From a virus (Duplodnaviria > Heunggongvirae > Uroviricota > Caudoviricetes): a stretch of DNA of 22,358 nucleotides. The number at the start of each line of letters is the position of its first letter. Positions within the stretch are counted from its first letter, which is position 1. The position numbers and the translations under genes were made by a program. Under the pieces are notes generated by a model. It worked only from the letters and a program-made list of their open reading frames with translations. It searched no databases and was not told where the DNA came from. Shown one piece after another: positions 5,450 through 22,358 of the stretch. The stretch lies in the IMG/VR virus record IMGVR_UViG_2541047718_000017. The stretch is one strand, 5' to 3'.

Positions 5450-5965
5450 TCAGAGGCCGAGGGCGTTGCGGTGCGCTTCCATCAGGTCCACACCGTCCAC
5501 AATTTCCACCATGTTGATAAGGTCCACTTCATAGAGCACCTCACCATTGATGGTCAGCTTCGCGTAGCTGTTGGTACTGGTCACTTTGGTGGTGTTGCTT
5601 TCGCCCGTCTTCCACTCGCCGGAATCCACTTCTTTGTGACGTCCACGCACGACAAGCTCCACGGCCTGCACTTCCCCGGTATCGTCACGCTGAATAGAGC
5701 CGGTAAAGCGCAGCTGGATGCCATCCACCGTGGCTTTACCCATCTGTTTAAACAGCAGCAATTCAGTACCACCAATGGAAAATTCTGTATCCAGCGCACT
5801 GTCATCAAGCCCCAGATCCACATCCACCGCACCCGGCATTCCGCCGCCGCGATACTTCTCATATTTGCGGGTAAATTTCGGCAGCGTCAGCGACTCAACG
5901 ATCCCCTGCCAGTTGTTCCCGTCGTTAAACAGGTTCAGGTGTTTTAATTTGCGTGGTAAAGCCAT
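5450..5965 (-). CDS. FII: tail tube protein
   Basis: 171-aa ORF; position and translation consistent with P2 gpFII. Confidence 0.9.
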   Translation of the reverse strand: MALPRKLKHLNLFNDGNNWQGIVESLTLPKFTRKYEKYRGGGMPGAVDVDLGLDDSALDTEFSIGGTELLLFKQMGKATVDGIQLRFTGSIQRDDTGEVQAVELVVRGRHKEVDSGEWKTGESNTTKVTSTNSYAKLTINGEVLYEVDLINMVEIVDGVDLMEAHRNALGL

Positions 5966-5974
5966 GTTGTCCCC

Positions 5975-6195
5975 TTACGCGCTGACCTGGCTGGCGAAAT
6001 TAACCAGGTACTGATCGGTGATGCGCTGACGCAGCATCAGGTTTTCAAGTGGCGGCACTGGCGTGTAGTCGTAGTCGATGGTGAGTTTTCCGGCTTTCAG
6101 CGTGTCTTTGTCGTTCACCGACTCATCCAGCCAGCAATCACCACCAATGAGATAGCCCTGACTGACCAGGCTGCGCATTTTGGCGCGGATACCTT
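5975..6195 (-). pseudogene. FI: tail sheath protein FI, detached C-terminal fragment (about 71 codons)
   Basis: ...[71 protein letters not shown] matches the P2 FI C-terminus; no FI-like sequence upstream of the junction at about 6194; the track ORF extends to 6337 only because no stop intervenes. Confidence 0.85.
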
Positions 6196-6207
6196 GGTTT
6201 GGGAGAA
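6182..6207 (+). other. hybrid invertase crossover site (junction A): FI-derived half GGCGCGGATACC, core TT, tail-fibre half GGTTTGGGAGAA
   Basis: 12-2-12 architecture; right half is the exact inverted repeat of 8045-8056; left half is sheath coding sequence. Confidence 0.7.
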
Positions 6208-6696
6208 GGCTCTGCATTACCGGTTGGGGTGCCTGTTCCGTGGCCTTCAGCCACTCCGCCAACAGGCTGGCTGAAATGCAACGGTGCCGCTTTTTCTGCT
6301 GAAGAATACCCGGAACTGGCAAAGGCTTATCCGACAAATAAATTGCCTGATTTACGTGGTGAGTTTATTCGTGGCTGGGATGACGGGCGTGGTATTGATG
6401 CTGTACGTGCCTTGCTAAGTCTTCAGAATGGAGGAGTGGAATCACACACCCACCAAGGGCAGCTCTTCAGAGTTAGTGATTATCGTACAAAAGAAATACC
6501 AGCATCAGAAGTTATGGGAAGAGGATATATTGCAAGCCTGACGCCGGGTGCTGATAGCCCACTTGATTTTGATGATTATTCTGTATCTTCTAATCCAAAT
6601 GGATATTTTGTCGGGAATCAGAGAACAACAGCATATGGGATAAATGAAACCCGTCCACGGAATATTGCATTTAACTATATCGTGAGGGCTGCCTGA
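6196..6696 (+). CDS. tail fibre variable C-terminal exon (Hv), currently not joined to the H constant region
   Basis: Begins GGT TTG GGA GAA (GLGE) immediately after the crossover core; translation ...[42 protein letters not shown]...NYIVRAA is a typical enterobacterial side-tail-fibre C-terminal receptor-binding domain; upstream in-frame stop at about 6163. Confidence 0.8.
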
Positions 6697-7298
6697 TGAA
6701 TAAAGCCGTATTAAATAACGAACTCATTGCCATAAAAGCGGGAGACATTACCATTTATAATTATGATGGTGAAACGCGGGAATATATTTCCACATCAACT
6801 GAATATCTTGCGGTTGGCGTCGGTATCCCGGCATGTTCTTGTTTAGATGCACCAGTTACACATAAAGCTGGTTATGCAATCTGCCGTTCTGCAGATTTTA
6901 ACTCATGGGAATATGTGCCAGACCATCGCGGTGAAATCATCTATAGCACCGAAACAGGAGAATCGAAAGAAATCACAGCTCCGGGTGATTACCCTGAAAA
7001 TACAACCACTATCGCCCCGTTAACGCCATATGATAAATGGGATGGTGAGAAATGGGTGACGGATACTGAGGCACAGCATAGTGCCGCAGTAGACGCGGCA
7101 GAAGCACAGCGCCAGTCACTGATTGATGCAGCAATGGCTTCCATTAGTCTGATTCAGCTGAAATTACAGGCCGGACGGAAGTTGACGCAGGCAGAAACAA
7201 CCCGACTTAACGCCGTGCTGGATTACATTGACGCGGTGGCGGCAACAGATACCAGCACCGCGCCGGATGTCATCTGGCCTGAACTGCCGGAGGCGTAG
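6696..7298 (+). CDS. tail fibre assembly chaperone (Tfa / Mu U-like) for Hv
   Basis: 200-aa ORF coupled to the Hv stop; C-terminal ...DYIDAVAATDTSTAPDVIWPELPEA motif typical of Tfa proteins. Confidence 0.85.
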   Translation: MNKAVLNNELIAIKAGDITIYNYDGETREYISTSTEYLAVGVGIPACSCLDAPVTHKAGYAICRSADFNSWEYVPDHRGEIIYSTETGESKEITAPGDYPENTTTIAPLTPYDKWDGEKWVTDTEAQHSAAVDAAEAQRQSLIDAAMASISLIQLKLQAGRKLTQAETTRLNAVLDYIDAVAATDTSTAPDVIWPELPEA

Positions 7299-7707
7299 GC
7301 CATTCAATATCTGGCGCACCGGTAGTATCGACTAGCTCCAGTGCGTCCAGATAATCCAGCCACGAATTATATTGCGCCAGTTCCTCGCTTTTCAGACGAC
7401 CAATAGCGGCTTTACCGGGCCATTGTTTACTGTTCATGTATTCGTTGGCCTGATTAAGCAATAATTGCCTTTCTGATTCTGCCTGTTGAATAAGTTCTTC
7501 ATGTGATGGTGGAGGTATTAGTGCCCATGTGGGTAATCCATTTTTTCCTGCAACACGAATTTTGTCATCTGGAGGCGTATTGATTGCAAATTCATTATAA
7601 ACATCATCACTGACAGCCAGAGCATCATCTGGCCATGAATTTGCATTAATGTAATCATCCTTAAGTGCAGGATTCACAAAAATGTTTAAAGATGGACTAT
7701 AAAACAT
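7270..7707 (-). CDS. alternative tail fibre assembly chaperone (Tfa', Mu U'-like)
   Basis: 145-aa ORF convergent with and overlapping tfa by 29 bp; C-terminal ...DYLDALELVDTTGAPDIEWPTPPA motif. Confidence 0.85.
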   Translation of the reverse strand: MFYSPSLNIFVNPALKDDYINANSWPDDALAVSDDVYNEFAINTPPDDKIRVAGKNGLPTWALIPPPSHEELIQQAESERQLLLNQANEYMNSKQWPGKAAIGRLKSEELAQYNSWLDYLDALELVDTTGAPDIEWPTPPAVQAR

Positions 7708-7708
7708 A

Positions 7709-8056
7709 TTACACCCCTATAGCGATATAACGACCTAATACAGCGTTTACAGCAGTCGCTATGCTTGAAAAACCGCGGAACTGATTTGATGTAATTGCAG
7801 AAGCCGACAGGATTCCTGCGCCTGAAGGTGTATGCCCCACATGACTAACTATCATTCCATAACATGCTGACGGAAAGGCAAAAGGAAAATCGTTAAGATA
7901 TCCGGCATCTTCACCACCAGACCCACCAAATCTCGCCTGCCCCCACTGAATAATCAGTGTTCTCCGGGAACCTGAAATAATTAACGGGATCGTTACATAC
8001 CCATTCAGGCCAATGACACCCGATGCAGTGCCAGCCAGAGATAATTCTCCCAAACC
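7709..8056 (-). CDS. alternative tail fibre variable C-terminal exon (Hv')
   Basis: Coding starts at the crossover core with the same GGT TTG GGA GAA (GLGE) as Hv; followed by tfa'. Codons upstream of 8056 in the track ORF (MMPVSCYLCIFLNV) lie in the outer half-site and are probably not coding. Confidence 0.78.
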   Translation of the reverse strand, partial: GLGELSLAGTASGVIGLNGYVTIPLIISGSRRTLIIQWGQARFGGSGGEDAGYLNDFPFAFPSACYGMIVSHVGHTPSGAGILSASAITSNQFRGFSSIATAVNAVLGRYIAIGV

Positions 8057-8070
8057 AACGTTTAAGAAAA
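8045..8070 (+). other. invertase crossover site (gix/hix/pix-like): TTCTCCCAAACC AA CGTTTAAGAAAA
   Basis: 12-2-12 near-dyad resembling the remembered hix/gix consensus (TTCTnnAAAACC-NN-GGTTT...); inner half is a perfect inverted repeat of 6196-6207; lies 56 bp upstream of the invertase start. Confidence 0.75.
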
Positions 8071-8125
8071 TGCAGAGGTAACAGCTAACTGGCATCATCT
8101 CCGGTTTTTATTCAGGGGGATGATC

Positions 8126-8692
8126 ATGCTTATTGGCTATGTACGCGTGTCAACAAATGACCAGAACACCGATTTGCAACGTAATGCACTGAACTGCGCG
8201 GGATGTGAGCAGATTTTTGAGGACAAAATCAGTGGCACTAAGTCCGACAGACCGGGGCTGAAAAAACTACTCAGGACACTATCGGCAGGAGACACGCTGG
8301 TTGTCTGGAAGCTGGACAGGTTGGGGCGCAGTATGCGGCATCTTGTTACGCTGATAGAAGAGTTGCGCCAGCGTGGTGTGAATTTCAGAAGCCTGACTGA
8401 CAGTATTGATACCAGTACCCCAATGGGCCGTTTCTTTTTTCATGTCATGGGTGCCCTGGCTGAAATGGAACGCGAACTGATAGTTGAACGTACCAGGGCA
8501 GGGCTGGCTGCAGCTCGTGCCAAAGGCAGAGTAGGTGGACGCCGTCCTAAGTTGACCACCGAACAGTGGGCACAGATTGGGCGTTTACTCGAGGCCGGAG
8601 AATCAAGACAGCGTATTGCACTGATTTTTGATGTAGGCGTTTCTACCATTTATAGAAAATTTCCGGCAAATAAGATCAATGAATCCCCCTGA
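8126..8692 (+). CDS. serine-recombinase DNA invertase (Gin/Pin/Cin/Hin family)
   Basis: MLIGYVRVSTNDQNTDLQRNAL...VVWKLDRLGRSMRHL...MGRFFFHVMGALAEMERELIVERT... matches Gin/Pin-type invertases from memory, including the catalytic Ser in YVRVST and a C-terminal HTH. Start taken at the internal ATG (track start 8120). Confidence 0.92.
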   Translation: MLIGYVRVSTNDQNTDLQRNALNCAGCEQIFEDKISGTKSDRPGLKKLLRTLSAGDTLVVWKLDRLGRSMRHLVTLIEELRQRGVNFRSLTDSIDTSTPMGRFFFHVMGALAEMERELIVERTRAGLAAARAKGRVGGRRPKLTTEQWAQIGRLLEAGESRQRIALIFDVGVSTIYRKFPANKINESP

Positions 8693-8740
8693 ATCAGCAT
8701 TATGTTGATTATCCCTGCAAGCAGACAAATACCGTTATTT

Positions 8741-8758
8741 TGTGTGAATAACGACACA
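8741..8758 (+). promoter_or_regulatory. Ogr-box (TGT-N12-ACA) of late promoter P_F upstream of FI
   Basis: TGTgtgaataacgacACA with 5-bp dyad arms, in the 143-bp gap between invertase and FI start, about 85 bp upstream of the FI ATG (8835). Confidence 0.6.
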
Positions 8759-8834
8759 ACTGCGCTTAGCTGTTTGTCAGGCACAATCACTTCAACATAG
8801 GGCGAAGCCTAATCCAATCAGGAGGTTCGCCACT

Positions 8835-9797
8835 ATGGCTCAGGATTACCACCACGGGGTGCGCGTTGTTGAAGTCAACGAAGGTACCCGATCTATTACC
8901 ACGGTGAGCACCGCCATCGTGGGTATGGTCTGCACGGGCGATGATGCCGATGCAAAAATGTTTCCTCTTAATAAACCCGTGCTGATCACTGATGTGCTGA
9001 CTGCCAGCGGTAAAGCGGGTGAGTCAGGTACTCTGGCCCGTTCGCTGGATGCCATCGCTGACCAGGCAAAACCCGTGACCATTGTTGTGCGTGTGCCGCA
9101 GGGTGAAACGGAAGACGAAACCACGACCAATATCATCGGCGCAGTGACTGCTGAAGGTAAAAAAACAGGTATGAAAGCCCTGTTATCTGCCCAGTCACAG
9201 CTCGGCGTTAAACCGCGCATTCTCGGCGTGCCAGGCCACGACACCAAGGCGGTAGCTACTGAGTTGCTGAGCGTGGCGCAAAGCCTGCGTGGATTTGCTT
9301 ACCTGTCAGCGTATGGCTGCAAGACAGTGCAGGAGGCGATCACTTACCGCGAAAACTTCAGCCAGCGCGAAGGGATGCTGATCTGGCCTGACTTTACTGG
9401 CTGGGACACGGTGCTGAATGCCGAAGCAACGGCATATGCCACCGCCCGTGCGCTTGGTCTGCGCGCCAAAATTGACGAGCAGACCGGATGGCACAAAAGC
9501 CTGTCCAACGTGGGCGTGAACGGTGTCACCGGAATTTCTGCAGATGTGTTCTGGGATCTGCAGGACCCGGCAACCGATGCAGGTCTGCTGAACCAGAACG
9601 ACGTCACCACGCTTGTGCGTAAAGACGGTTTCCGCTTCTGGGGTTCCCGCTGCCTGAGTGATGACCCGCTCTTTGCCTTCGAAAACTACACCCGCACGGC
9701 GCAGGTGCTGATGGACACGATGGCAGAAGCACACATGTGGGCGGTGGATAAACCGCTTAACCCGTCGCTGGCCCGCGACATTATCGAAGGTATGTGA
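8835..9797 (+). pseudogene. FI: tail sheath protein FI, N-terminal 319 codons, truncated at the inversion junction
   Basis: MAQDYHHGVRVVEVNEGTRSITTVSTAIVGMVCTGDDADAKMFPLNKPVLITDV... is near-collinear with the P2 FI N-terminus; reading frame ends ...RDIIEG-M-stop two codons after the crossover core. Confidence 0.88.
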
Positions 9798-9800
9798 GAA
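9775..9800 (+). other. hybrid invertase crossover site (junction B): FI-derived half GCGACATTATCG, core AA, H-derived half GGTATGTGAGAA
   Basis: H-side half (TTCTCACATACC on the minus strand) matches the Hv/Hv' half-site TTCTCCCAAACC at 10 of 12 positions; the other half is sheath coding sequence. Confidence 0.7.
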
Positions 9801-10836
9801 GACCAGCTACATCCTTTCCACTCAAATTGGTAAGCGTATTGTCCAGCGGTTGTTTACCTGCCAGCGCATTAAGCATTGTCGTGGCAAAGTTCGGATCATT
9901 CCCCAGTGCCGCCGCCAGTTCGTTCAGTGTATCCAGTGCAGCAGGTGCAGAACCCACCATTCCTGCAATCGCCGATTTCACAAAAGCCGTAGTGGCAATC
10001 TGTGTATTGTTGACCGACTGCGCCGCCGTGGGGGCTGTTGGCGTTCCGGTGAGTGCCGGACTCGACAACGGTGCTTTTAGTGCCAGCGCATTGTTAATGG
10101 TGGTACTGAAATTCGGATCATTGTTAATGGCTGCGGCTATTTCTTTCAGCGTGTCCAGCGTGGCTGGCGCACCATTAATAAGGGCCGTCAGTGCCGCCTG
10201 TACAAACGCAGTGGTCGCAACCTGCGTGGTATTATTCCCCGCCGCTGGCGTTGGCGCTTTGGGGGTTCCGGTAAATGTCGGGCTGGCTTTTGGCGCGTAC
10301 TGTGAATGCGGGTCCGGTGCGGCAAGATGTTTTGCCATCTGATCATCCGCGTACACCTTCAGCTCCAGTGCCTTGTCATCCACATACTTGCGGGTTGCCA
10401 GCACTACAGCAGGGTCGATTTTCAGGGTGATATTGTCCGTGCTGCTGGTAATCAGCACCATGCGCACGGTCTGAGTGCGCCCGCTACCTTCAGCCAGTTG
10501 CGGCTTATAGCTTTCCGGGCAGTTGCCCACGGCAATCAATGCACCTGACTCATCAAACAGGCCCACTTCACGTATCCACCAACCGCCCTCGTTTTCAGGG
10601 ATCACCTGTTCGGCAATAATCTGGCTGCTGTTCTGCGGGTCGATATAAAGCATATTCAGCGCAGCCCGGCGTTTCTCATTTACCAGTGCCGTCTGCTTTG
10701 CGTCCGGCGTTGGCAATACTCCACCGCCATCGCCCACCGCCATATGGGTAATTTTTAGCGGCACACCGAGCGCGGCGGCGCTGGCAAGTTTCGCCGCGCC
10801 AATATCCGTCAGCAGGGTATAAAATTTTGTGCTCAT
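9781..10836 (-). CDS. H: tail fibre protein H, N-terminal constant region (Mu Sc-equivalent), ending 2 codons after the crossover core
   Basis: MSTKFYTLLTDIGAAKLA...MAVGDGGG...ESYKPQLAEGSGRTQT... and the repeated ...TQIATTAFV... motifs match the P2 gpH N-terminal part; the ORF ends ...LTYL-R-stop at the junction with antisense FI. Confidence 0.88.
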   Translation of the reverse strand: MSTKFYTLLTDIGAAKLASAAALGVPLKITHMAVGDGGGVLPTPDAKQTALVNEKRRAALNMLYIDPQNSSQIIAEQVIPENEGGWWIREVGLFDESGALIAVGNCPESYKPQLAEGSGRTQTVRMVLITSSTDNITLKIDPAVVLATRKYVDDKALELKVYADDQMAKHLAAPDPHSQYAPKASPTFTGTPKAPTPAAGNNTTQVATTAFVQAALTALINGAPATLDTLKEIAAAINNDPNFSTTINNALALKAPLSSPALTGTPTAPTAAQSVNNTQIATTAFVKSAIAGMVGSAPAALDTLNELAAALGNDPNFATTMLNALAGKQPLDNTLTNLSGKDVAGLLTYLR

Positions 10837-11438
10837 GGATTCACTCTCATTGTGTCAATAACATGGACCGCCCCGCCTTCATGCGCGGTGCCACCGGAAA
10901 TAATCGTTTCGTTGATATACGGATAGATCGTGATTTCTTCGCCAAGATAGCTGGCGGCTCCCACCCAATGCGGGCCGCTGGTCTGCAGATTGATGGACAT
11001 GCCGATCATGTGGCGGCTACATGGTTTGGCATCGCTTATCAGTCGCTCAAGTTCCAGATAGGTATCTTCAGTGATGCCCTGGTCCTGCACGCCGATATCC
11101 AGGCGAAACGTGCCCGGTGTTTCTCCGGTCTGCCACCACTCAATAATGCGGATCAGGAATCCGAACGGCTCCACCACCCGCCGCACGGCACTGGTGGTCC
11201 CTTTATGCTGATGAATATAAAAAGCATCCTTCACCACCTGGCGCTTGACGCTTTCTGTCCAGCCCTCGTCCCAGCGATCCACAGAGAACGCCCAGGCGAG
11301 ATAAGGCAGGAAACTGACCGGACAGGTTGCCGGATTCCACAAATCACGAAGCGGCACCTGCAGATCAGAAATCCCGCTGCAGGTTTGCGCCAGTCGGCAC
11401 TCCAGTGGTGTTGAACCCGGTGGCAGCAGACTATTCAT
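10833..11438 (-). CDS. I: baseplate assembly protein I
   Basis: 201-aa ORF between J and H with overlapping stops/starts; N-terminus MNSLLPPGSTPLE resembles P2 gpI. Confidence 0.86.
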   Translation of the reverse strand: MNSLLPPGSTPLECRLAQTCSGISDLQVPLRDLWNPATCPVSFLPYLAWAFSVDRWDEGWTESVKRQVVKDAFYIHQHKGTTSAVRRVVEPFGFLIRIIEWWQTGETPGTFRLDIGVQDQGITEDTYLELERLISDAKPCSRHMIGMSINLQTSGPHWVGAASYLGEEITIYPYINETIISGGTAHEGGAVHVIDTMRVNP

Positions 11439-12339
11439 CCGTTCCTCCGTTGGTTACGCTCCACTGCGTACATGATGCCGCCTGTGTTTTGTTCAGGACC
11501 ACATCCGCCAGAGGAGAAGCCAGCTCCACACGCTGCACCCCCTCAACATGCAGGGCGGCAAAGATGGCGCTACGGCGAATATCCCGACCAAGACGCGTCT
11601 GACTGGCGATGTACTTCTGCAGGCTGGCTTTTGCCGCTGCCATTACCGGCTCTGCTTCCGGTCCAGGATAGAGAAAAATGGTGGCTTCCACGCGATACGG
11701 GATGATTTCTGCGCTGCGAACCGTAAGACGGTCAGCCACCGGGCGGACGTTCTCACTGTTCAGAGCTTTTTCCACCACGTCCAGCAGGTCTTTTTCTGCA
11801 GTTCCATCGCCTTCGCGGCTAAGGACAGTCAGCACCACCTCTGCAGGTGCCGGGCTGGTTGCACTGGCATCCGCCACCCGACCGTCGGCGCTTCGGGCAT
11901 GAAATTCATAAGCTGCAGTTGGCCCCGCAACAGAAAGCCCTTCAAAGGCTGCAGGCACACGCAGGCGCAACGCTTCATCGCTTTCCATCACAGCTGCAAC
12001 GGGCGGCACAGCATCATTATCAGCAGGCGTCACCGTCAGGCGTGTCACGTTGTAGTTGGCAGCGAGCTGGTCAAGATCGCCGCCCATCGCGTAAGCCACC
12101 ATCACCGCCTGCGCGGCTTCGTTAATGCGCTGGCGCAGAAGCAACTCACGGTAAGCGTTCTCCTGCAACAATTTAGTGGCGGGTTCAGATTCCAGTTCCA
12201 GCGTGCGGATCACTGCTTCCTGCTCATCTTTCGGATGAAGCGCCACAAATTCTGCCTTGCGTTCGGCAAGCAGCGTCTCAAAGTCCGGCACATCCACAAT
12301 CTGCGGTGCAGGCAACTGCGAAAGGTCAATCACTGCCAT
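11431..12339 (-). CDS. J: baseplate assembly protein J
   Basis: Translation from MAVIDLSQLPAPQIVDVPDFETLLAERKAEF... is collinear with P2 gpJ; start taken at the internal ATG (track ORF begins at 12378). Confidence 0.9.
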   Translation of the reverse strand: MAVIDLSQLPAPQIVDVPDFETLLAERKAEFVALHPKDEQEAVIRTLELESEPATKLLQENAYRELLLRQRINEAAQAVMVAYAMGGDLDQLAANYNVTRLTVTPADNDAVPPVAAVMESDEALRLRVPAAFEGLSVAGPTAAYEFHARSADGRVADASATSPAPAEVVLTVLSREGDGTAEKDLLDVVEKALNSENVRPVADRLTVRSAEIIPYRVEATIFLYPGPEAEPVMAAAKASLQKYIASQTRLGRDIRRSAIFAALHVEGVQRVELASPLADVVLNKTQAASCTQWSVTNGGTDE

Positions 12340-12685
12340 TCTCTGCTCCTGTTGATACGGAAAGGGACACAGGCACACCGTTATTCCGCCGCCCGGTCAG
12401 CTCCACCACCATTGAACCGTCAAAATTGCTGTTGATGGTGATGGAATCCAGCGTCAACCGTGGCTCCCAGCGACTCAGCGCCACATACACTGCCGACATG
12501 ACCTGCAGGCGTAATGCCGGATTTTGTGGCTGATCTATCAGTGCCGACAGCAGGGAACCATATTCCCGGCGGGCAATACGGCTACCCTGCGGTGTCAGCA
12601 GAATGTCCCGCACCGACTGGCGCAGATGATCAATATCAGTAATGACTTTGCCGCTGGTATTGTTCATCCCGCTATAAAGCGTCAT
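12326..12685 (-). CDS. W: baseplate wedge protein W (T4 gp25-like)
   Basis: 119-aa ORF; ...DILLTPQGSRIARREYGSLL...DQPQNPALRLQ... matches P2 gpW. Confidence 0.9.
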   Translation of the reverse strand: MTLYSGMNNTSGKVITDIDHLRQSVRDILLTPQGSRIARREYGSLLSALIDQPQNPALRLQVMSAVYVALSRWEPRLTLDSITINSNFDGSMVVELTGRRNNGVPVSLSVSTGAENGSD

Positions 12686-13260
12686 ACCGGGCCTCCGGTT
12701 GTATCGCCGCCTTTCAGGACGCCAGTATGCTGATGCGCATCAACCACGATCCCGTTAGAACTCATCGCTCCGCCGCCCTGGGTAACGCCACCATTGATCA
12801 CCACTTCGCTGTTAATGCGCGTGCGGTCAGCCTCCAGTACAAACTCACTGGTTTTCATGGTGATGTTGTCAGCAGCCTCAATGACCATTGATTTGATGCC
12901 CCTGACATACCAGCGCCCGGTGGCGGGTTCGTATTCAAACCAGCCACCGTCAGGATGTTCTGTCACGCAGGCGTCCGCCGACGTCGACGGTGGTGCGAAC
13001 TGATTCGAATAGACAGCGGGCAGCGCAAAGGCGGTTTCCAGATTGCCGCCCAGACTCAGCAGCACCACCTGCTCACCTTCCGATGGTCGCCACCATGTAC
13101 GGGCATTCCCGGCACGCAGCGTCAGCCAGCTGATCCAGTTGGTTTCAAGCTCGCCCGTTTTCACCCGGCAAAGCCAGTTTTCCCTGTCCACTTCGGTGAC
13201 TACCCCTGTGCGGATCAGGTTGGTGATAAGGCGCATGATTTCGGTTAATTGTGCGTTCAT
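12682..13260 (-). CDS. V: baseplate spike/hub protein V
   Basis: 192-aa ORF; MNAQLTEIMRLITNLIRTGVV...CRVKTG... collinear with P2 gpV. Confidence 0.9.
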   Translation of the reverse strand: MNAQLTEIMRLITNLIRTGVVTEVDRENWLCRVKTGELETNWISWLTLRAGNARTWWRPSEGEQVVLLSLGGNLETAFALPAVYSNQFAPPSTSADACVTEHPDGGWFEYEPATGRWYVRGIKSMVIEAADNITMKTSEFVLEADRTRINSEVVINGGVTQGGGAMSSNGIVVDAHQHTGVLKGGDTTGGPV

Positions 13261-13306: not shown

Positions 13307-13324
13307 TGTATCAGTGCTGATACA
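13307..13324 (+). promoter_or_regulatory. Ogr-box (TGT-N12-ACA) of late promoter P_V
   Basis: TTGTATCAGtgCTGATACAA, a 20-bp dyad with 9-bp arms, in the 68-bp gap between S stop and V start. Confidence 0.6.
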
Positions 13325-13328
13325 AAGA

Positions 13329-13775
13329 TCACCCCGCCAGCCATTGCAGAATCATGTCGCGGGTCATTGCCTCAACATCATCATTTACACCCAGAAGGCG
13401 ACGCTCTGCGTAACGCACCTCCGGTCCCTTACGACTGACGCGATCTCGCAGGCCGTAATGGTGAACGCGGGCAATGCGCTGCACCTTGCCTTCAAACTGC
13501 ACGCTGGCAGAGTCGGCGCTGGCGGAAGTTTTCAGGTATTTTGTGGTGCGCAGCTTTGCAAACATCTGACGTTTGATACGGCCTTTTTTACTGCGTGCTG
13601 TTACCCGTCGCGGTTCATAACTGCTGCCATCTGGATTGCGCTGCATTCTGATATTTTGCTGCTGTGTCCGGCGTAGTTCCTGCGCCAGCTGGCGCATCAT
13701 GCGGCTTCTTGCGGCTGGCTCCAGATTCGCCAGCAAGGCACTCAGCCAGTCGTCCACTTTCTGCAGTTCAGCCAC
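13329..13775 (-). CDS. S: tail completion protein S
   Basis: 148-aa ORF; ...RRTQQQNIRMQRNPDGS...RVTARSKKGRIKRQMFAKLRT...VQRIARVHHYGL... matches P2 gpS. Confidence 0.9.
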   Translation of the reverse strand: MAELQKVDDWLSALLANLEPAARSRMMRQLAQELRRTQQQNIRMQRNPDGSSYEPRRVTARSKKGRIKRQMFAKLRTTKYLKTSASADSASVQFEGKVQRIARVHHYGLRDRVSRKGPEVRYAERRLLGVNDDVEAMTRDMILQWLAG

Positions 13776-14220
13776 GTTTCACCGTCCACATTTCTTCAGG
13801 TTCATCAGGTTCCGCTATAGCTTCAACGCTCGACACACTGCCGTCAGTGCTGACCAGCACACGCTCCGTCAGTTGCAGGTTGAGGCTGATATCACAGACA
13901 TCGTTGCGCAGAATATCCACCTCAAAGGTGAATAGCTTTTCCCGTAACGCCGGGTTATTGATGGCATCGGGCTGGTTATCACGCAGCCACAGCAAAACCG
14001 GGGCCATCAGCAGATTCTGGTCGCCGCTGAAATCCTCAATCACCACGTTCAGGGTGTAGCGGTACTCCCATGACATGGAGCTGGCCCCCGTGGCAACCAG
14101 CGAACCGTTATCCACAAACAGATGCAGTTTGTCCGGGTTATTGCGGACATAAGGCACCGCTTTATTGAGGGCGTGGCGCAGGGATTGTGGTTTGTTCACT
14201 GTTTCGCTCCTGACACGCAA
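13768..14220 (-). CDS. R: tail completion protein R
   Basis: 150-aa ORF; ...FVDNGS...RYTLNVVIEDFSGD...WLRDNQPD... matches P2 gpR; exact start uncertain. Confidence 0.85.
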   Translation of the reverse strand: MRVRSETVNKPQSLRHALNKAVPYVRNNPDKLHLFVDNGSLVATGASSMSWEYRYTLNVVIEDFSGDQNLLMAPVLLWLRDNQPDAINNPALREKLFTFEVDILRNDVCDISLNLQLTERVLVSTDGSVSSVEAIAEPDEPEEMWTVKRG

Positions 14221-14452
14221 TAATCATGTCCACTTTGTCTGCACAGACCGCCCAGGCGGCCTCCGTTTCATCCAGCAACGCATTCAGATCACCGTTAGTG
14301 CGCGGTGCTGCCTGCTCCAGCCGACACGGCGTCACTCGCGGACAACCACTGACGGTAAGCTGCACCTCCGGTGAGTGCCGGACGTTCCCGCAGCCGGATA
14401 ATGTCAGCAGGCAAAGGAGTATCAGCCCAGTGGCGTAAATCCTCGTTCTCAC
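14162..14452 (-). CDS. lysC: outer-membrane spanin lipoprotein (Rz1-like)
   Basis: 96-aa ORF in an alternative frame overlapping the lysB 3' end and the R 5' end; N-terminal lipobox LLTLSGC. Confidence 0.72.
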   Translation of the reverse strand: MRTRIYATGLILLCLLTLSGCGNVRHSPEVQLTVSGCPRVTPCRLEQAAPRTNGDLNALLDETEAAWAVCADKVDMIIACQERNSEQTTIPAPRPQ

Positions 14453-14723
14453 GTTTCAGTTCCTCGATCCGGCGTTGTCGTTGTCTCAGCTGTGCGCTGG
14501 TCTGTTCTGCTTCGGCATAGAGCCGCGCCTGCTCCCGGTTATTGGTTTCAGTCAGAATGGACAGGCTGATAAGCTGGCTGTTGCTCTTTGCCAGTGCCTG
14601 GCTTTTGCTCTGCAGCTCGTTTGCCTGCGTGCTGATGGTCTGGCTGGCATCAGCCAGCCGCCACGTCTGCCAGCCCAGCGCCGCTAGTAATAACGCCAGC
14701 ACAACCAGCAGCAACCGGTTCAT
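14295..14723 (-). CDS. lysB: inner-membrane spanin (Rz-like)
   Basis: 142-aa ORF; N-terminal TM segment then a coiled-coil-prone region; ATGA coupling with lysA. Confidence 0.8.
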   Translation of the reverse strand: MNRLLLVVLALLLAALGWQTWRLADASQTISTQANELQSKSQALAKSNSQLISLSILTETNNREQARLYAEAEQTSAQLRQRQRRIEELKRENEDLRHWADTPLPADIIRLRERPALTGGAAYRQWLSASDAVSAGAGSTAH

Positions 14724-15097
14724 GCTGCTACCTGTTGCGCCATCTGATTACGGGTGATCCAGAAGGCAATAACGGTCAGTAGATAAAAGACCAGGGTAAT
14801 AGCCCACCCCGTCCATGCGAGACTTACAACAATCAGCAATCGCATCACCCAACTGATAAATACGTTTTCTTTTCGGGTAATTGTCTTCAGCAAAGATGCC
14901 CTTAACTCCTGCCAGAGCGGGCCATTCTGAATTAACGCAGCCAGTGCTACCGGAATTACCGCCCATGTCAGCAAACAGGCTACCCAAACGCCGGACGCTG
15001 CCAGTACCGGAAAGATCCCCTGCGGATACACCATTGCTGCGATTAACAGCGCCATCCATAACATCAGAAACAGTCCGCTGATTAATTTCTTTTTCAT
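14720..15097 (-). CDS. lysA: lysis-timing membrane protein LysA
   Basis: Multi-TM hydrophobic ORF between K and lysB; start taken at internal MKKKLISGLF (the track ORF starts at a GTG at 15169 inside K). My manual indexing here disagrees with the track by 1 nt. Confidence 0.7.
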   Translation of the reverse strand: MKKKLISGLFLMLWMALLIAAMVYPQGIFPVLAASGVWVACLLTWAVIPVALAALIQNGPLWQELRASLLKTITRKENVFISWVMRLLIVVSLAWTGWAITLVFYLLTVIAFWITRNQMAQQVAA

Positions 15098-15098
15098 T

Positions 15099-15611
15099 TC
15101 AGTTTGCTCCCTGTAAACACCAGGCCATCTCCCGCGCACGGCGGTTATCCAGCCCCTGATTAAACACACCTTTTACATAAACCCAGCGCGGCAACTGTCG
15201 GCACGCATCCGCCCAGCGCCGCTGATTGAGCAATTTCACCAGCGTGGAGCTGCAGGCATTGCCTGTCCCCACGTTGAAGGCAAACGACACCACCGAGTCA
15301 TACACCTTTTGTGGCGGCTGTTGCTTCACACATCTTTCCAGCGCCCGCTCCACACGCAGCACGTTGGAGATAAGCCCTTCTGCTGCCTGTCGTTCCGTAA
15401 TGGTTTTGCCGGGAATGACGCCCGACGTATTACCAATGCCGTCAGTCCATACACCCGCGCTGCACTGATAGGGCTGCAGACGACAGCCTTCGTAATCGGC
15501 AATCAGTTTCAGTCCCTCCACGGAGGTGTGAAGCTGCTGAAAACCCGGCAGCGTGGCAGCAATAGCCAGCACGGTCCCGACAAGGCAGCGTTTAACGATT
15601 GATGGATTCAT
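15099..15611 (-). CDS. K: endolysin (lysozyme), probable SAR-type
   Basis: 170-aa ORF at the P2 K position; Gly/Ala-rich weakly hydrophobic N-terminus (CLVGTVLAIAATLPG), then a lysozyme-like E...D...T motif region (EGLKLIADYEG...WTDGIGNT). Confidence 0.85.
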   Translation of the reverse strand: MNPSIVKRCLVGTVLAIAATLPGFQQLHTSVEGLKLIADYEGCRLQPYQCSAGVWTDGIGNTSGVIPGKTITERQAAEGLISNVLRVERALERCVKQQPPQKVYDSVVSFAFNVGTGNACSSTLVKLLNQRRWADACRQLPRWVYVKGVFNQGLDNRRAREMAWCLQGAN

Positions 15612-19214: not shown

Positions 19215-19232
19215 TGTACCGACAACCACACA
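19215..19232 (+). promoter_or_regulatory. Ogr-box (TGT-N12-ACA) in the divergent O / P-Q promoter region
   Basis: tTTGTaccgacaaccacACAAa with 5-bp dyad arms, in the 142-bp gap between the O and P start codons; which promoter it serves is unresolved. Confidence 0.5.
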
Positions 19233-22154: not shown

Positions 22155-22358
22155 TGAACCGCCCCGGGAATCCTGGAGACTAAACTTCCTGAGAAAGAGG
22201 TAAACAGGATGACTAAAAATACTCGTTTTTCCCCCGAAGTCCGTCAACGGGCAGTCCGTATGGTTCTGGAAAGTCAGAGCGAATATGACTCACAATGGGC
22301 GACAATTTGTTCCATTGCTCCAAAGATTGGCTGTACGCCGGAGACTCTGCGTGTCTGG
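22155..22358 (+). mobile_element. IS3-family insertion sequence, left end (IS629/IS1203/IS3411-like), truncated by the window edge
   Basis: Terminal TGAACCGCCCCGGGAATCCTGGAGACTAAACTTCC matches the IS629-group left inverted repeat as I remember it, followed by the orfA start. Confidence 0.8.
22209..22358 (+). CDS. IS3-family transposase OrfA (N-terminal HTH part, partial)
   Basis: Translation [50 protein letters not shown] is characteristic of IS629-group OrfA. Confidence 0.8.

Follow-up and report, generated by a model that had tools for sequence, protein, structure and literature searches.

The DNA stretch analyzed here (IMG/VR record IMGVR_UViG_2541047718_000017, 22,358 bp, hereafter the window) is the late-gene remnant of a P2/186-like prophage of Escherichia coli, running from ogr to the portal gene and then into an IS3-family element. 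It carries a serine DNA invertase of the Gin/Cin family next to a tail-fibre cassette with two alternative fibre C-terminal exons, Hv and Hv', and this cassette is separated from Hc, the constant N-terminal part of the fibre gene H. Very probably, this arrangement results from a natural secondary-site inversion between a genuine crossover site in H (site L) and a sequence in the sheath gene (Q), which left an orphan cassette that still flips. The evidence comes from an exact comparison with a strain carrying the canonical gene order and from the occurrence of both cassette orientations in otherwise identical sequence.

Conservative inversion of a 3,595-bp segment

The same remnant occupies the same chromosomal locus in strain CE10 (NC_017646.1), where the genes keep the canonical order. 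In comparison with CE10, window positions 6189-9793 were 100% identical on the strand opposite to both flanks, and the flank alignments overlapped the inverted block by 7 bp at each end (ATACCTT at 6189-6195 and AAGGTAT at 9787-9793). From core to core, the segment inverted in the L x Q event spans 6194..9788, i.e., 3,595 bp. After in silico re-inversion of 6194-9788, a single alignment colinear with CE10 was obtained over 9,605 bp, with 3 mismatches and 0 gaps. The re-inversion restored a fibre of 516 aa and a sheath protein of 390 aa that match those of CE10 exactly, and the alternative state yields the fibre of strain N32. The exchange was conservative and reciprocal, inside a 7-bp identity that holds the central dinucleotide of L. 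As is typical of secondary-site inversion, no base was gained or lost, the break falls on the central dinucleotide of a genuine site, its partner has an identical core, and this partner, Q, shows limited similarity to the consensus site.

The ancestor would have had a normal fibre switch of the Gin/Cin type, lying entirely on one strand in the order Hc, L, cassette (Hv, tfa, tfa' and Hv'), a second crossover site (R), the invertase, and a late promoter driving the sheath and tube genes. After loss of the replication genes, a serine invertase would have recombined L with the unrelated Q in the sheath gene, and a staggered cut at the core followed by a 180-degree exchange would have inverted the 3,595 bp. 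The inversion split the genes for fibre and sheath, reoriented the sheath promoter so that it no longer faces the tube-to-D genes, and left two hybrid sites, A and B, at the ends of the inverted segment.

Intact and hybrid crossover sites

Invertases of this type cleave 26-bp sites with a stagger across the central 2 bp, and recombination requires complementary overhangs (PMC1904230); 26-bp crossover sites with a complementary 2-bp overhang are described together with an enhancer inside the invertase gene (PMC1904230, PMC3798978). A preliminary description of the window, made from its letters, had placed three such sites in it, and all three read exactly as described there. Site R (8045-8070; TTCTCCCAAACC-AA-CGTTTAAGAAAA) is an intact 26-bp site, identical to the one in CE10, where a normal switch operates. 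Junction A (6182-6207; GGCGCGGATACC-TT-GGTTTGGGAGAA) is a hybrid composed of a sheath-derived outer half, the core and the native cassette-side half. Junction B (9775-9800; GCGACATTATCG-AA-GGTATGTGAGAA) is also a hybrid, composed of a sheath-derived half, the core and the native fibre-constant-side half. The in silico re-inversion against CE10 gave the two ancestral sequences, site L within gene H (TTCTCACATACC-TT-GGTTTGGGAGAA) and Q within the sheath gene (GCGACATTATCG-AA-GGTATCCGCGCC), which have only the central ATACCTT in common, including the 2-bp core.

The 14-mer TTCTCCCAAACCAA, made of the inner half-site and the core, is present in exactly 2 copies in the window, with 0 mismatches and in inverted orientation, at 6194-6207 on the minus strand and 8045-8058 on the plus strand. 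A and R therefore form a matched inverted pair, as had been proposed, and the same pair was recovered in the inverted-repeat search with 17-nt arms that were 94% complementary. The right half of B together with the core matches what CE10 has on the fibre-constant side of its L site, so B does retain the half-site derived from H; window positions 9787-12793 are colinear with CE10 with 1 mismatch. On the plus strand, the cores read TT in A, AA in R and AA in B. R and B thus point in the same direction, as direct repeats, and A is inverted to both.

We scored half-sites using a weight matrix derived from Mu gix, P1 cix and the local sites, to which L and R themselves contributed. The half-sites of R scored 17.5 and 14.0 bits and those of L 14.4 and 17.5 bits, and ancestral L and R were the top two 26-mers in the 22 kb. 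The scores were -7.4 and +17.5 bits for A, and -20.2 and +14.4 bits for B. R is thus a complete site, and A and B each combine one native half with one half that is unlike a site. The proposal that the three sites share half-sites is borne out by the native halves of A and B and fails for their sheath-derived halves, with scores of -7.4 and -20.2 bits.

Both orientations of the orphan cassette

The preliminary description had also suggested that the Hv/Hv' cassette can still invert and that neither orientation would place an exon after H. To follow the two orientations, we designated the window state as S1 and the product of A x R inversion, built in silico, as S2. S2 predicts an 84-aa open reading frame (ORF) that is possible only if the C-terminal fragment of the sheath gene joins the Hv' end of the cassette through A, and S1 predicts a 115-aa ORF in its place. 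The 115-aa ORF, which marks S1 only, was found on 88 contigs (142 index blocks), and the 84-aa ORF, which marks S2 only, on 55 contigs (96 index blocks). Junction B, present in S1 and S2 alike, was marked by the 351-aa truncated Hc on 189 contigs (298 index blocks) and by the 320-aa N-terminal sheath fragment on 190 contigs.

We then read individual contigs over their length. Contig L016, a Logan assembly of SRR25710687, spans B, R and A and aligns to S2 along 16,229 nt without a mismatch or gap, and L017 is S2 at 100% over 6,959 nt. Two other contigs, L013 and L015, are S1 at 100%. The S1 and S2 contigs that were read showed no mismatch to the window over 16-20 kb and enter the same ogr-side chromosomal flank (a truncated LysR gene, sad) as strain AF57. 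Among the contigs with the S2-specific ORF is one of 5,412,642 bp, a length near that of strain AR_0013 (RefSeq, 5,410,835 bp), which is in state S1; should the two be assemblies of a single strain, flipping within that strain would be demonstrated. Both cassette orientations exist in otherwise identical sequence, confirming that the cassette can still invert; the presence of both orientations in populations is a feature of the invertase family. Inversion between A and R would still occur because A kept its native cassette-side half-site and core, with R, the invertase and the presumed enhancer unchanged.

Neither S1 nor S2, examined in silico, places a fibre ending after Hc, which ends at 9781. 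The swapping of exons onto a constant N-terminal part, usual in this family, is seen in the ancestral arrangement (the 516-aa fibre of CE10 and the 465-aa fibre of N32) and is absent from the window. The flip is therefore without coding consequence, in agreement with the second part of the suggestion.

The ends of metagenome contigs were also considered as a sign of mixed orientations and rejected, since L009 ends 41 nt past A and not at a site boundary, and L010 and L011 are both chimeric at their far ends and uninformative. At window position 9715, L010 changes to unrelated sequence (its positions 1-205), and low-GC unrelated DNA is joined at window position 6084 in L011 (its positions 1365-1810).

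Involvement of the serine invertase

The invertase encoded in the window is 76% identical to Mu Gin and 78% identical to P1 Cin, matches the Gin structure PDB 3uj3 with an E-value of 3e-93 and contains the Pfam Resolvase (E 2e-53) and HTH_7 domains. It has the organization of the small serine recombinases (~190 aa class), with an N-terminal catalytic domain and a C-terminal helix-turn-helix, and the motif YVRVSTNDQ, which holds the catalytic serine of Gin and Cin, is conserved. The gene is intact (from 8120/8126 to 8692, plus strand), and the same protein, WP_000905010.1, is present in CE10, N32, AR_0013 and AF57. A presumptive Fis-dependent recombinational enhancer lies inside the gene (8144..8215, plus strand), by homology to the P1 cin enhancer (gene nt 19-90). 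This region is identical to the annotated P1 cin enhancer at 56 of 72 codon-aligned positions, and Cin and Gin agree at 55 of 72 in what is a conserved coding region.

We considered whether the inversion could have arisen by an invertase-free route, through illegitimate recombination or template switching between the 7-bp ATACCTT and AAGGTAT. The 7-bp microhomology at the junctions and the otherwise poor resemblance of Q to a crossover site would fit such an event. However, the 22-kb region contains 25,051 inverted 7-mer pairs, of which no more than 9 touch the core of L or R. The exchange took place at one of these 9, a coincidence of ~4e-4. The exchange was moreover perfectly conservative, and hybrid site A is a substrate for site-specific inversion with R. 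We therefore regard an invertase-free origin as highly improbable. The rarity of core-touching pairs, the conservative exchange and the further inversion at A together implicate an invertase, and we infer that either the resident enzyme or a trans-acting paralogue was responsible. The action of paralogous invertases in trans has been discussed (PMC4134206), and Cin is known to use quasi sites for which the central dinucleotide is the main determinant of choice (Iida and Hiestand-Nauer 1987, cited in PMC4134206).

Several observations weigh against the proposed secondary-site inversion followed by continued flipping. The half-sites of Q score -20.2 and -7.4 bits, and Q ranks 124th among the 1,536 26-mers with the correct core. 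A 7-bp central identity to L is present at 5 positions in the 22 kb, in comparison with 6.5 expected by chance, and similarity therefore gives no explanation of why the invertase chose Q. An action of a trans paralogue would take the event away from the resident enzyme. The function of the enhancer is presumed from 78% DNA identity in a conserved coding region. Finally, the numbers of contigs and blocks are affected by gene calling and do not constitute a proper isolate sample, and the split of ~60:40 between S1 and S2 fits many flips as well as one early flip inherited by a subclade. The rank of Q and the chance-level central identity also led us to reject Q as a recognisable pseudo-site.

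Distribution of the junctions

Both junctions were found in 2 of 5,426 complete E. coli genomes (AR_0013 and AF57). The component sequences are present in >2,000 of the complete genomes searched, and the arrangement was observed in no other lineage. By comparison, the canonical Hc-Hv junction was detected in 461 genomes and the N32-type Hc-Hv' junction in 31. The 26-mer of junction A was also present in 3 metagenome contigs, all in state S1, and was not found in one-genome-per-species or viral contig collections. The ~190 contigs with junction B were drawn from NCBI, ENA, Logan and JGI. They represent one clone sampled many times, including AF57 and AR_0013.

This distribution bears on the possibility of an assembly artefact. 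Invertible regions are known to confuse assemblies (PMC4134206), and two of the metagenome contigs with junction A are chimeric at their far ends. However, identical junctions were recovered in two independent complete genomes, in three metagenome contigs and on ~190 contigs, and the repeats at the junctions are 7-17 bp long, below the k-mers of assemblers. An artefact is almost certainly not the explanation.

Alternatively, S1 and S2 could derive from two independent aberrant inversions, L x Q with Hv on Hc and L' x Q with Hv' on Hc (L' being the site in the latter orientation). Both canonical orientations do occur in the parental remnant (CE10 and N32), and L' x Q gives S2 directly. This explanation requires a very rare event to have struck the same non-site-like Q twice, with no other lineage affected among >2,000 genomes, and the S1 and S2 contigs are mismatch-free to the window over 16-20 kb with the same ogr-side flank. 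Two separate events consequently seem very unlikely, and a single L x Q inversion followed by flipping between A and R is the reading we retain.

One 77-aa member of the cluster containing the S1-specific ORF (P0004) was excluded, as it comes from another P2-like remnant, ~79% identical, and does not represent the same junction. In that remnant (L022 2423-3234; L023 114-925), a 77-aa C-terminal sheath fragment lies directly after a tfa gene and a terminator. The homology begins ~16 nt from the position equivalent to Q, and this looks like a separate truncation nearby in the sheath gene.

Decay of the prophage before the inversion

The window is 100% identical to the corresponding region of E. 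coli AF57 (NZ_OZ546943.1; UK blood culture) and differs from strain AR_0013 by 1 base; AR_0013 and AF57 differ by 2 single-nucleotide polymorphisms over 34 kb. Its gene content comprises ogr, D, U, the tape measure, tube, baseplate, lysis, capsid, terminase and portal genes. Directly after the portal gene, the last ~150 bp (22209-22358) belong to the IS3-family element. The remnant occupies one and the same site in CE10, N32, IAI39, AR_0013 and AF57, a split LysR-family gene that lies between sad and yneK, and the same IS3 stands beside the portal gene in all five.

In CE10 and N32, the IS3 adjoins a truncated cII and everything between cII and the portal gene is gone (the IS3-cII' region was read at L006 38164-39574). 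The replication genes of P2/186-type phages are located between cII and the portal gene. CE10 and N32 keep cI, and N32 additionally has an annotated integrase. In AR_0013, AF57 and IAI39, a second deletion took cI and most of int. AF57 and AR_0013 accordingly show the portal gene, then IS3, then a truncated integrase, with no cI, cII or replication genes (L005 27158-28740). The full early region expected of a functional P2/186-like prophage, with replication, repressor and integrase genes, is thus absent.

Since CE10 and N32 hold a normal switch in opposite orientations, the invertase was active inside the remnant. IAI39 has the IS3/int' deletion and yet its sheath gene is intact, so the aberrant inversion came later than that deletion. 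The prophage was therefore already defective, its early and replication region lost to an IS3-associated deletion, when the inversion occurred.

IAI39 (L021, NC_011750.1) represents a separate decay route of the same remnant. An IS26 replaces its entire cassette and invertase between the intact sheath gene and a truncated H (13604-15520), and a second IS26 interrupts the terminase gene (25133-25837).

Predicted reversal and deletion

Four states form an inversion cycle, in which L x R connects S0 with S0', L' x Q connects S0' with S2, A x R connects S2 with S1, and A x B connects S1 with S0. Both routes to S0' yielded identical sequence in silico. S0 encodes the 516-aa fibre of CE10 and S0' the 465-aa fibre of N32, and each restores an intact 390-aa sheath protein. 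The prediction that only one arrangement is tail-proficient was therefore not upheld, as two of the four states (S0 and S0') restore both genes. At the phage level, tail proficiency is moot because the early and replication region, and then cI and most of int, have been lost.

Core complementarity would allow A x B reversal. We infer that A x B would be much rarer than A x R, each partner in A x B having one recognisable half-site. No evidence of such a reversal was found, and a revertant would look like the ancestor in these data. A search for revertants through the lineage-specific IS3/int' junction returned AR_0013, AF57 and IAI39 only. IAI39 was considered as a revertant and rejected: its sheath gene is intact, but IS26 stands in place of the cassette and invertase, and it can be read as a pre-inversion strain.

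A stronger version of this idea would be a fully reversible four-state switch, in which all three site pairs recombine appreciably and the tail module is phase-variable between ON and OFF. The cores of A and B are complementary when inverted, and re-inversion restores both ORFs exactly; A x R also works despite the non-cognate half of A, and the original L x Q exchange shows that a partner without a good half-site can be used. On the other side, no revertant was identifiable, two of the four half-sites are recognisable in A x B, and junction B is kept on ~190 contigs and in the two complete genomes that represent the clone. With the replication genes, cI and most of int missing from the remnant, restored tail genes would give no phage, and IAI39 with its intact sheath gene is more simply a pre-inversion relative. 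Overall, we consider a fully reversible switch unlikely, and an L x Q inversion with subsequent A x R flipping remains the preferred account.

Deletion between the direct sites R and B was also modelled. This 1,730-bp deletion (8057-9788, from the R core to the B core) would regenerate an exact L site in silico and give an in-frame full-length fibre gene, of 465 aa from S1 or 516 aa from S2. Both the invertase and the N-terminal sheath fragment would be lost with it. Direct repeats are strongly disfavoured as substrates by invertases. It is conceivable, although we judge it quite improbable, that the orphan cassette is not mere debris and that a hybrid site with a single cognate half keeps the clone polymorphic, with possible low-frequency A x B reversion or R x B deletion. 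The whole would then be a natural multi-state system, in which flipping or free Hv/Tfa products are retained for a benefit to the host, e.g., receptor masking as with PinQ/StfE2.

Comparison with known invertase systems

The ancestral switch resembles the G segment of Mu (Gin/gix) and the C segment of P1 (Cin/cix), and also e14 Pin and p15B Min, which are serine-invertase host-range switches of tail fibres. As with gix and cix, the sites are 26 bp long, with 12-bp half-sites that closely resemble gix and cix and a 2-bp core; the outer half of P1 cixR also ends in ATACC. Further features shared with the Gin/Cin switches are the two fibre C-termini in the cassette, each with its own chaperone, and the presence of both orientations in related strains (CE10 and N32); the presumptive enhancer would likewise lie in the 5' part of the invertase gene. 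Unlike in Gin/Cin switches, the constant exon no longer lies beside the cassette, the flip has no coding output, and the cassette is bounded on one side by a hybrid site that took its outer 7 bp from the sheath gene. The host element also differs from Mu and P1, being a P2/186-type remnant.

The quasi-site events of Cin (cixQ) similarly join a true site to a partner with little similarity beyond the central dinucleotide, by a conservative exchange after which hybrid sites remain. They reportedly arose under laboratory selection, either on plasmids or with Cin provided in trans, unlike the present case. A 1995 study by Rozsa et al. in J Bacteriol reportedly found the products of Cin quasi-site recombination to be stable. 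The event described here differs from cixQ in being natural and clonally inherited (~190 contigs), in disrupting the element's own tail genes and in leaving a hybrid site that keeps recombining. A full-text literature search for cixQ or quasi-site inversion returned only one citation, in PMC4134206.

The prophage switches of strain EC958 (ST131) are also P2-like with 26-bp sites, including a Phi2 pair with a TT core much like L and R, and switching there is visible in sequence as alternative PacBio contigs (PMC4134206). Those switches are canonical, with the constant exon attached, and no secondary-site inversion or orphan cassette is described (PMC4134206). The e14 PinQ system is likewise an active invertase in a cryptic prophage, rearranging fibre segments of a defective element (PMC12529663). 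Inversion of its P segment creates a chimeric StfE2 that blocks phage T2 (PMC12529663), whereas here no new fusion is formed in either orientation.

The mechanism corresponds to ordinary Gin/Cin-type serine-invertase chemistry with a use of secondary sites known from the laboratory, and no new mechanism needs to be invoked. What appears to be new is a natural, clonally inherited secondary-site inversion that disabled the element's own tail genes and left a hybrid site with one cognate half that still recombines. It would provide a natural and datable case in which a host-range invertase misfires at a sequence with almost no site similarity. In this single event, two tail genes, both essential, would have been disrupted and the tail operon separated from its promoter, which represents one route of prophage decay. 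In addition, the outer 7 bp of one half-site were swapped (TTCTCAC to GGCGCGG) without abolishing inversion in vivo, which amounts to natural mutagenesis and is informative on site requirements and on off-target prediction for Gin- or Hin-type tools. In practice, junctions A and B provide a clean clonal marker, and the S1/S2 polymorphism is a source of spurious annotation differences.

Genes and promoters around the cassette

Genes were assigned using Pfam, and the annotation of AR_0013 and AF57 by the Prokaryotic Genome Annotation Pipeline (PGAP) was compared; an NCBIfam scan gave no assignments further to those of Pfam. Within the orphan cassette, Hv (6199..6696, plus strand) matches Pfam Collar and corresponds to the C-terminus of the 516-aa CE10 fibre after re-inversion. 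It is followed by tfa (6696..7298, plus strand; Caudo_TAP, E 3e-32), the fibre assembly chaperone paired with it. On the minus strand, tfa' (7270..7707; Caudo_TAP, E 1e-32) is the chaperone paired with Hv', and Hv' itself (7709..8098; Gp53-like_C) is an ORF that spans site R and corresponds to the C-terminus of the 465-aa N32 fibre of S0'.

The sheath gene (FI) is present in two pieces. Its N-terminal fragment of 320 aa (8835..9797, plus strand) matches Pfam Gp18_domIII_N, Phage_sheath_1 and positions 1-47 of Phage_sheath_1C, and consists of 319 native codons followed by Met and a stop. The C-terminal fragment, severed from this N-terminal part, lies at 5975..6195 on the minus strand (Pfam table row 5975-6337) and matches Phage_sheath_1C positions 47-104; PGAP annotates it as a pseudogene without N-terminus. 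The truncated Hc (9781..10836, minus strand; Phage_tail_fib, E 7e-65) is 351 aa long, with 350 native residues followed by Arg and a stop, so that both truncated products stop one codon beyond their junctions. In the NCBI annotation of AR_0013 and AF57, both sheath pieces and Hc are pseudogenes. Pfam also assigned the tail tube (5450-5965, minus strand) and gpI (10833-11438, minus strand) on either side.

A TGT-N12-ACA dyad (8741..8758, plus strand) was found 77-94 nt before the sheath ATG, inside the inverted segment, as a predicted late promoter 5' of the sheath gene of the P2 P_F type. Dyads of the same pattern are located upstream of V (13307-13324) and between O and P (19215-19232). From what is known of P2 and 186, we take these dyads to be Ogr-type late promoters. 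The inversion carried the predicted sheath promoter off from the tube-to-D genes, a third defect besides the two split genes. Around the invertase, a promoter and terminator scan gave nothing above shuffled expectation.

Elsewhere in the remnant, the gpR-like tail protein is 143 aa long in AR_0013, AF57, N32 and IAI39, and 170 aa long in CE10, where the gene has 81 bp extra (L005 18717-19148 in comparison with L006 29642-30154).

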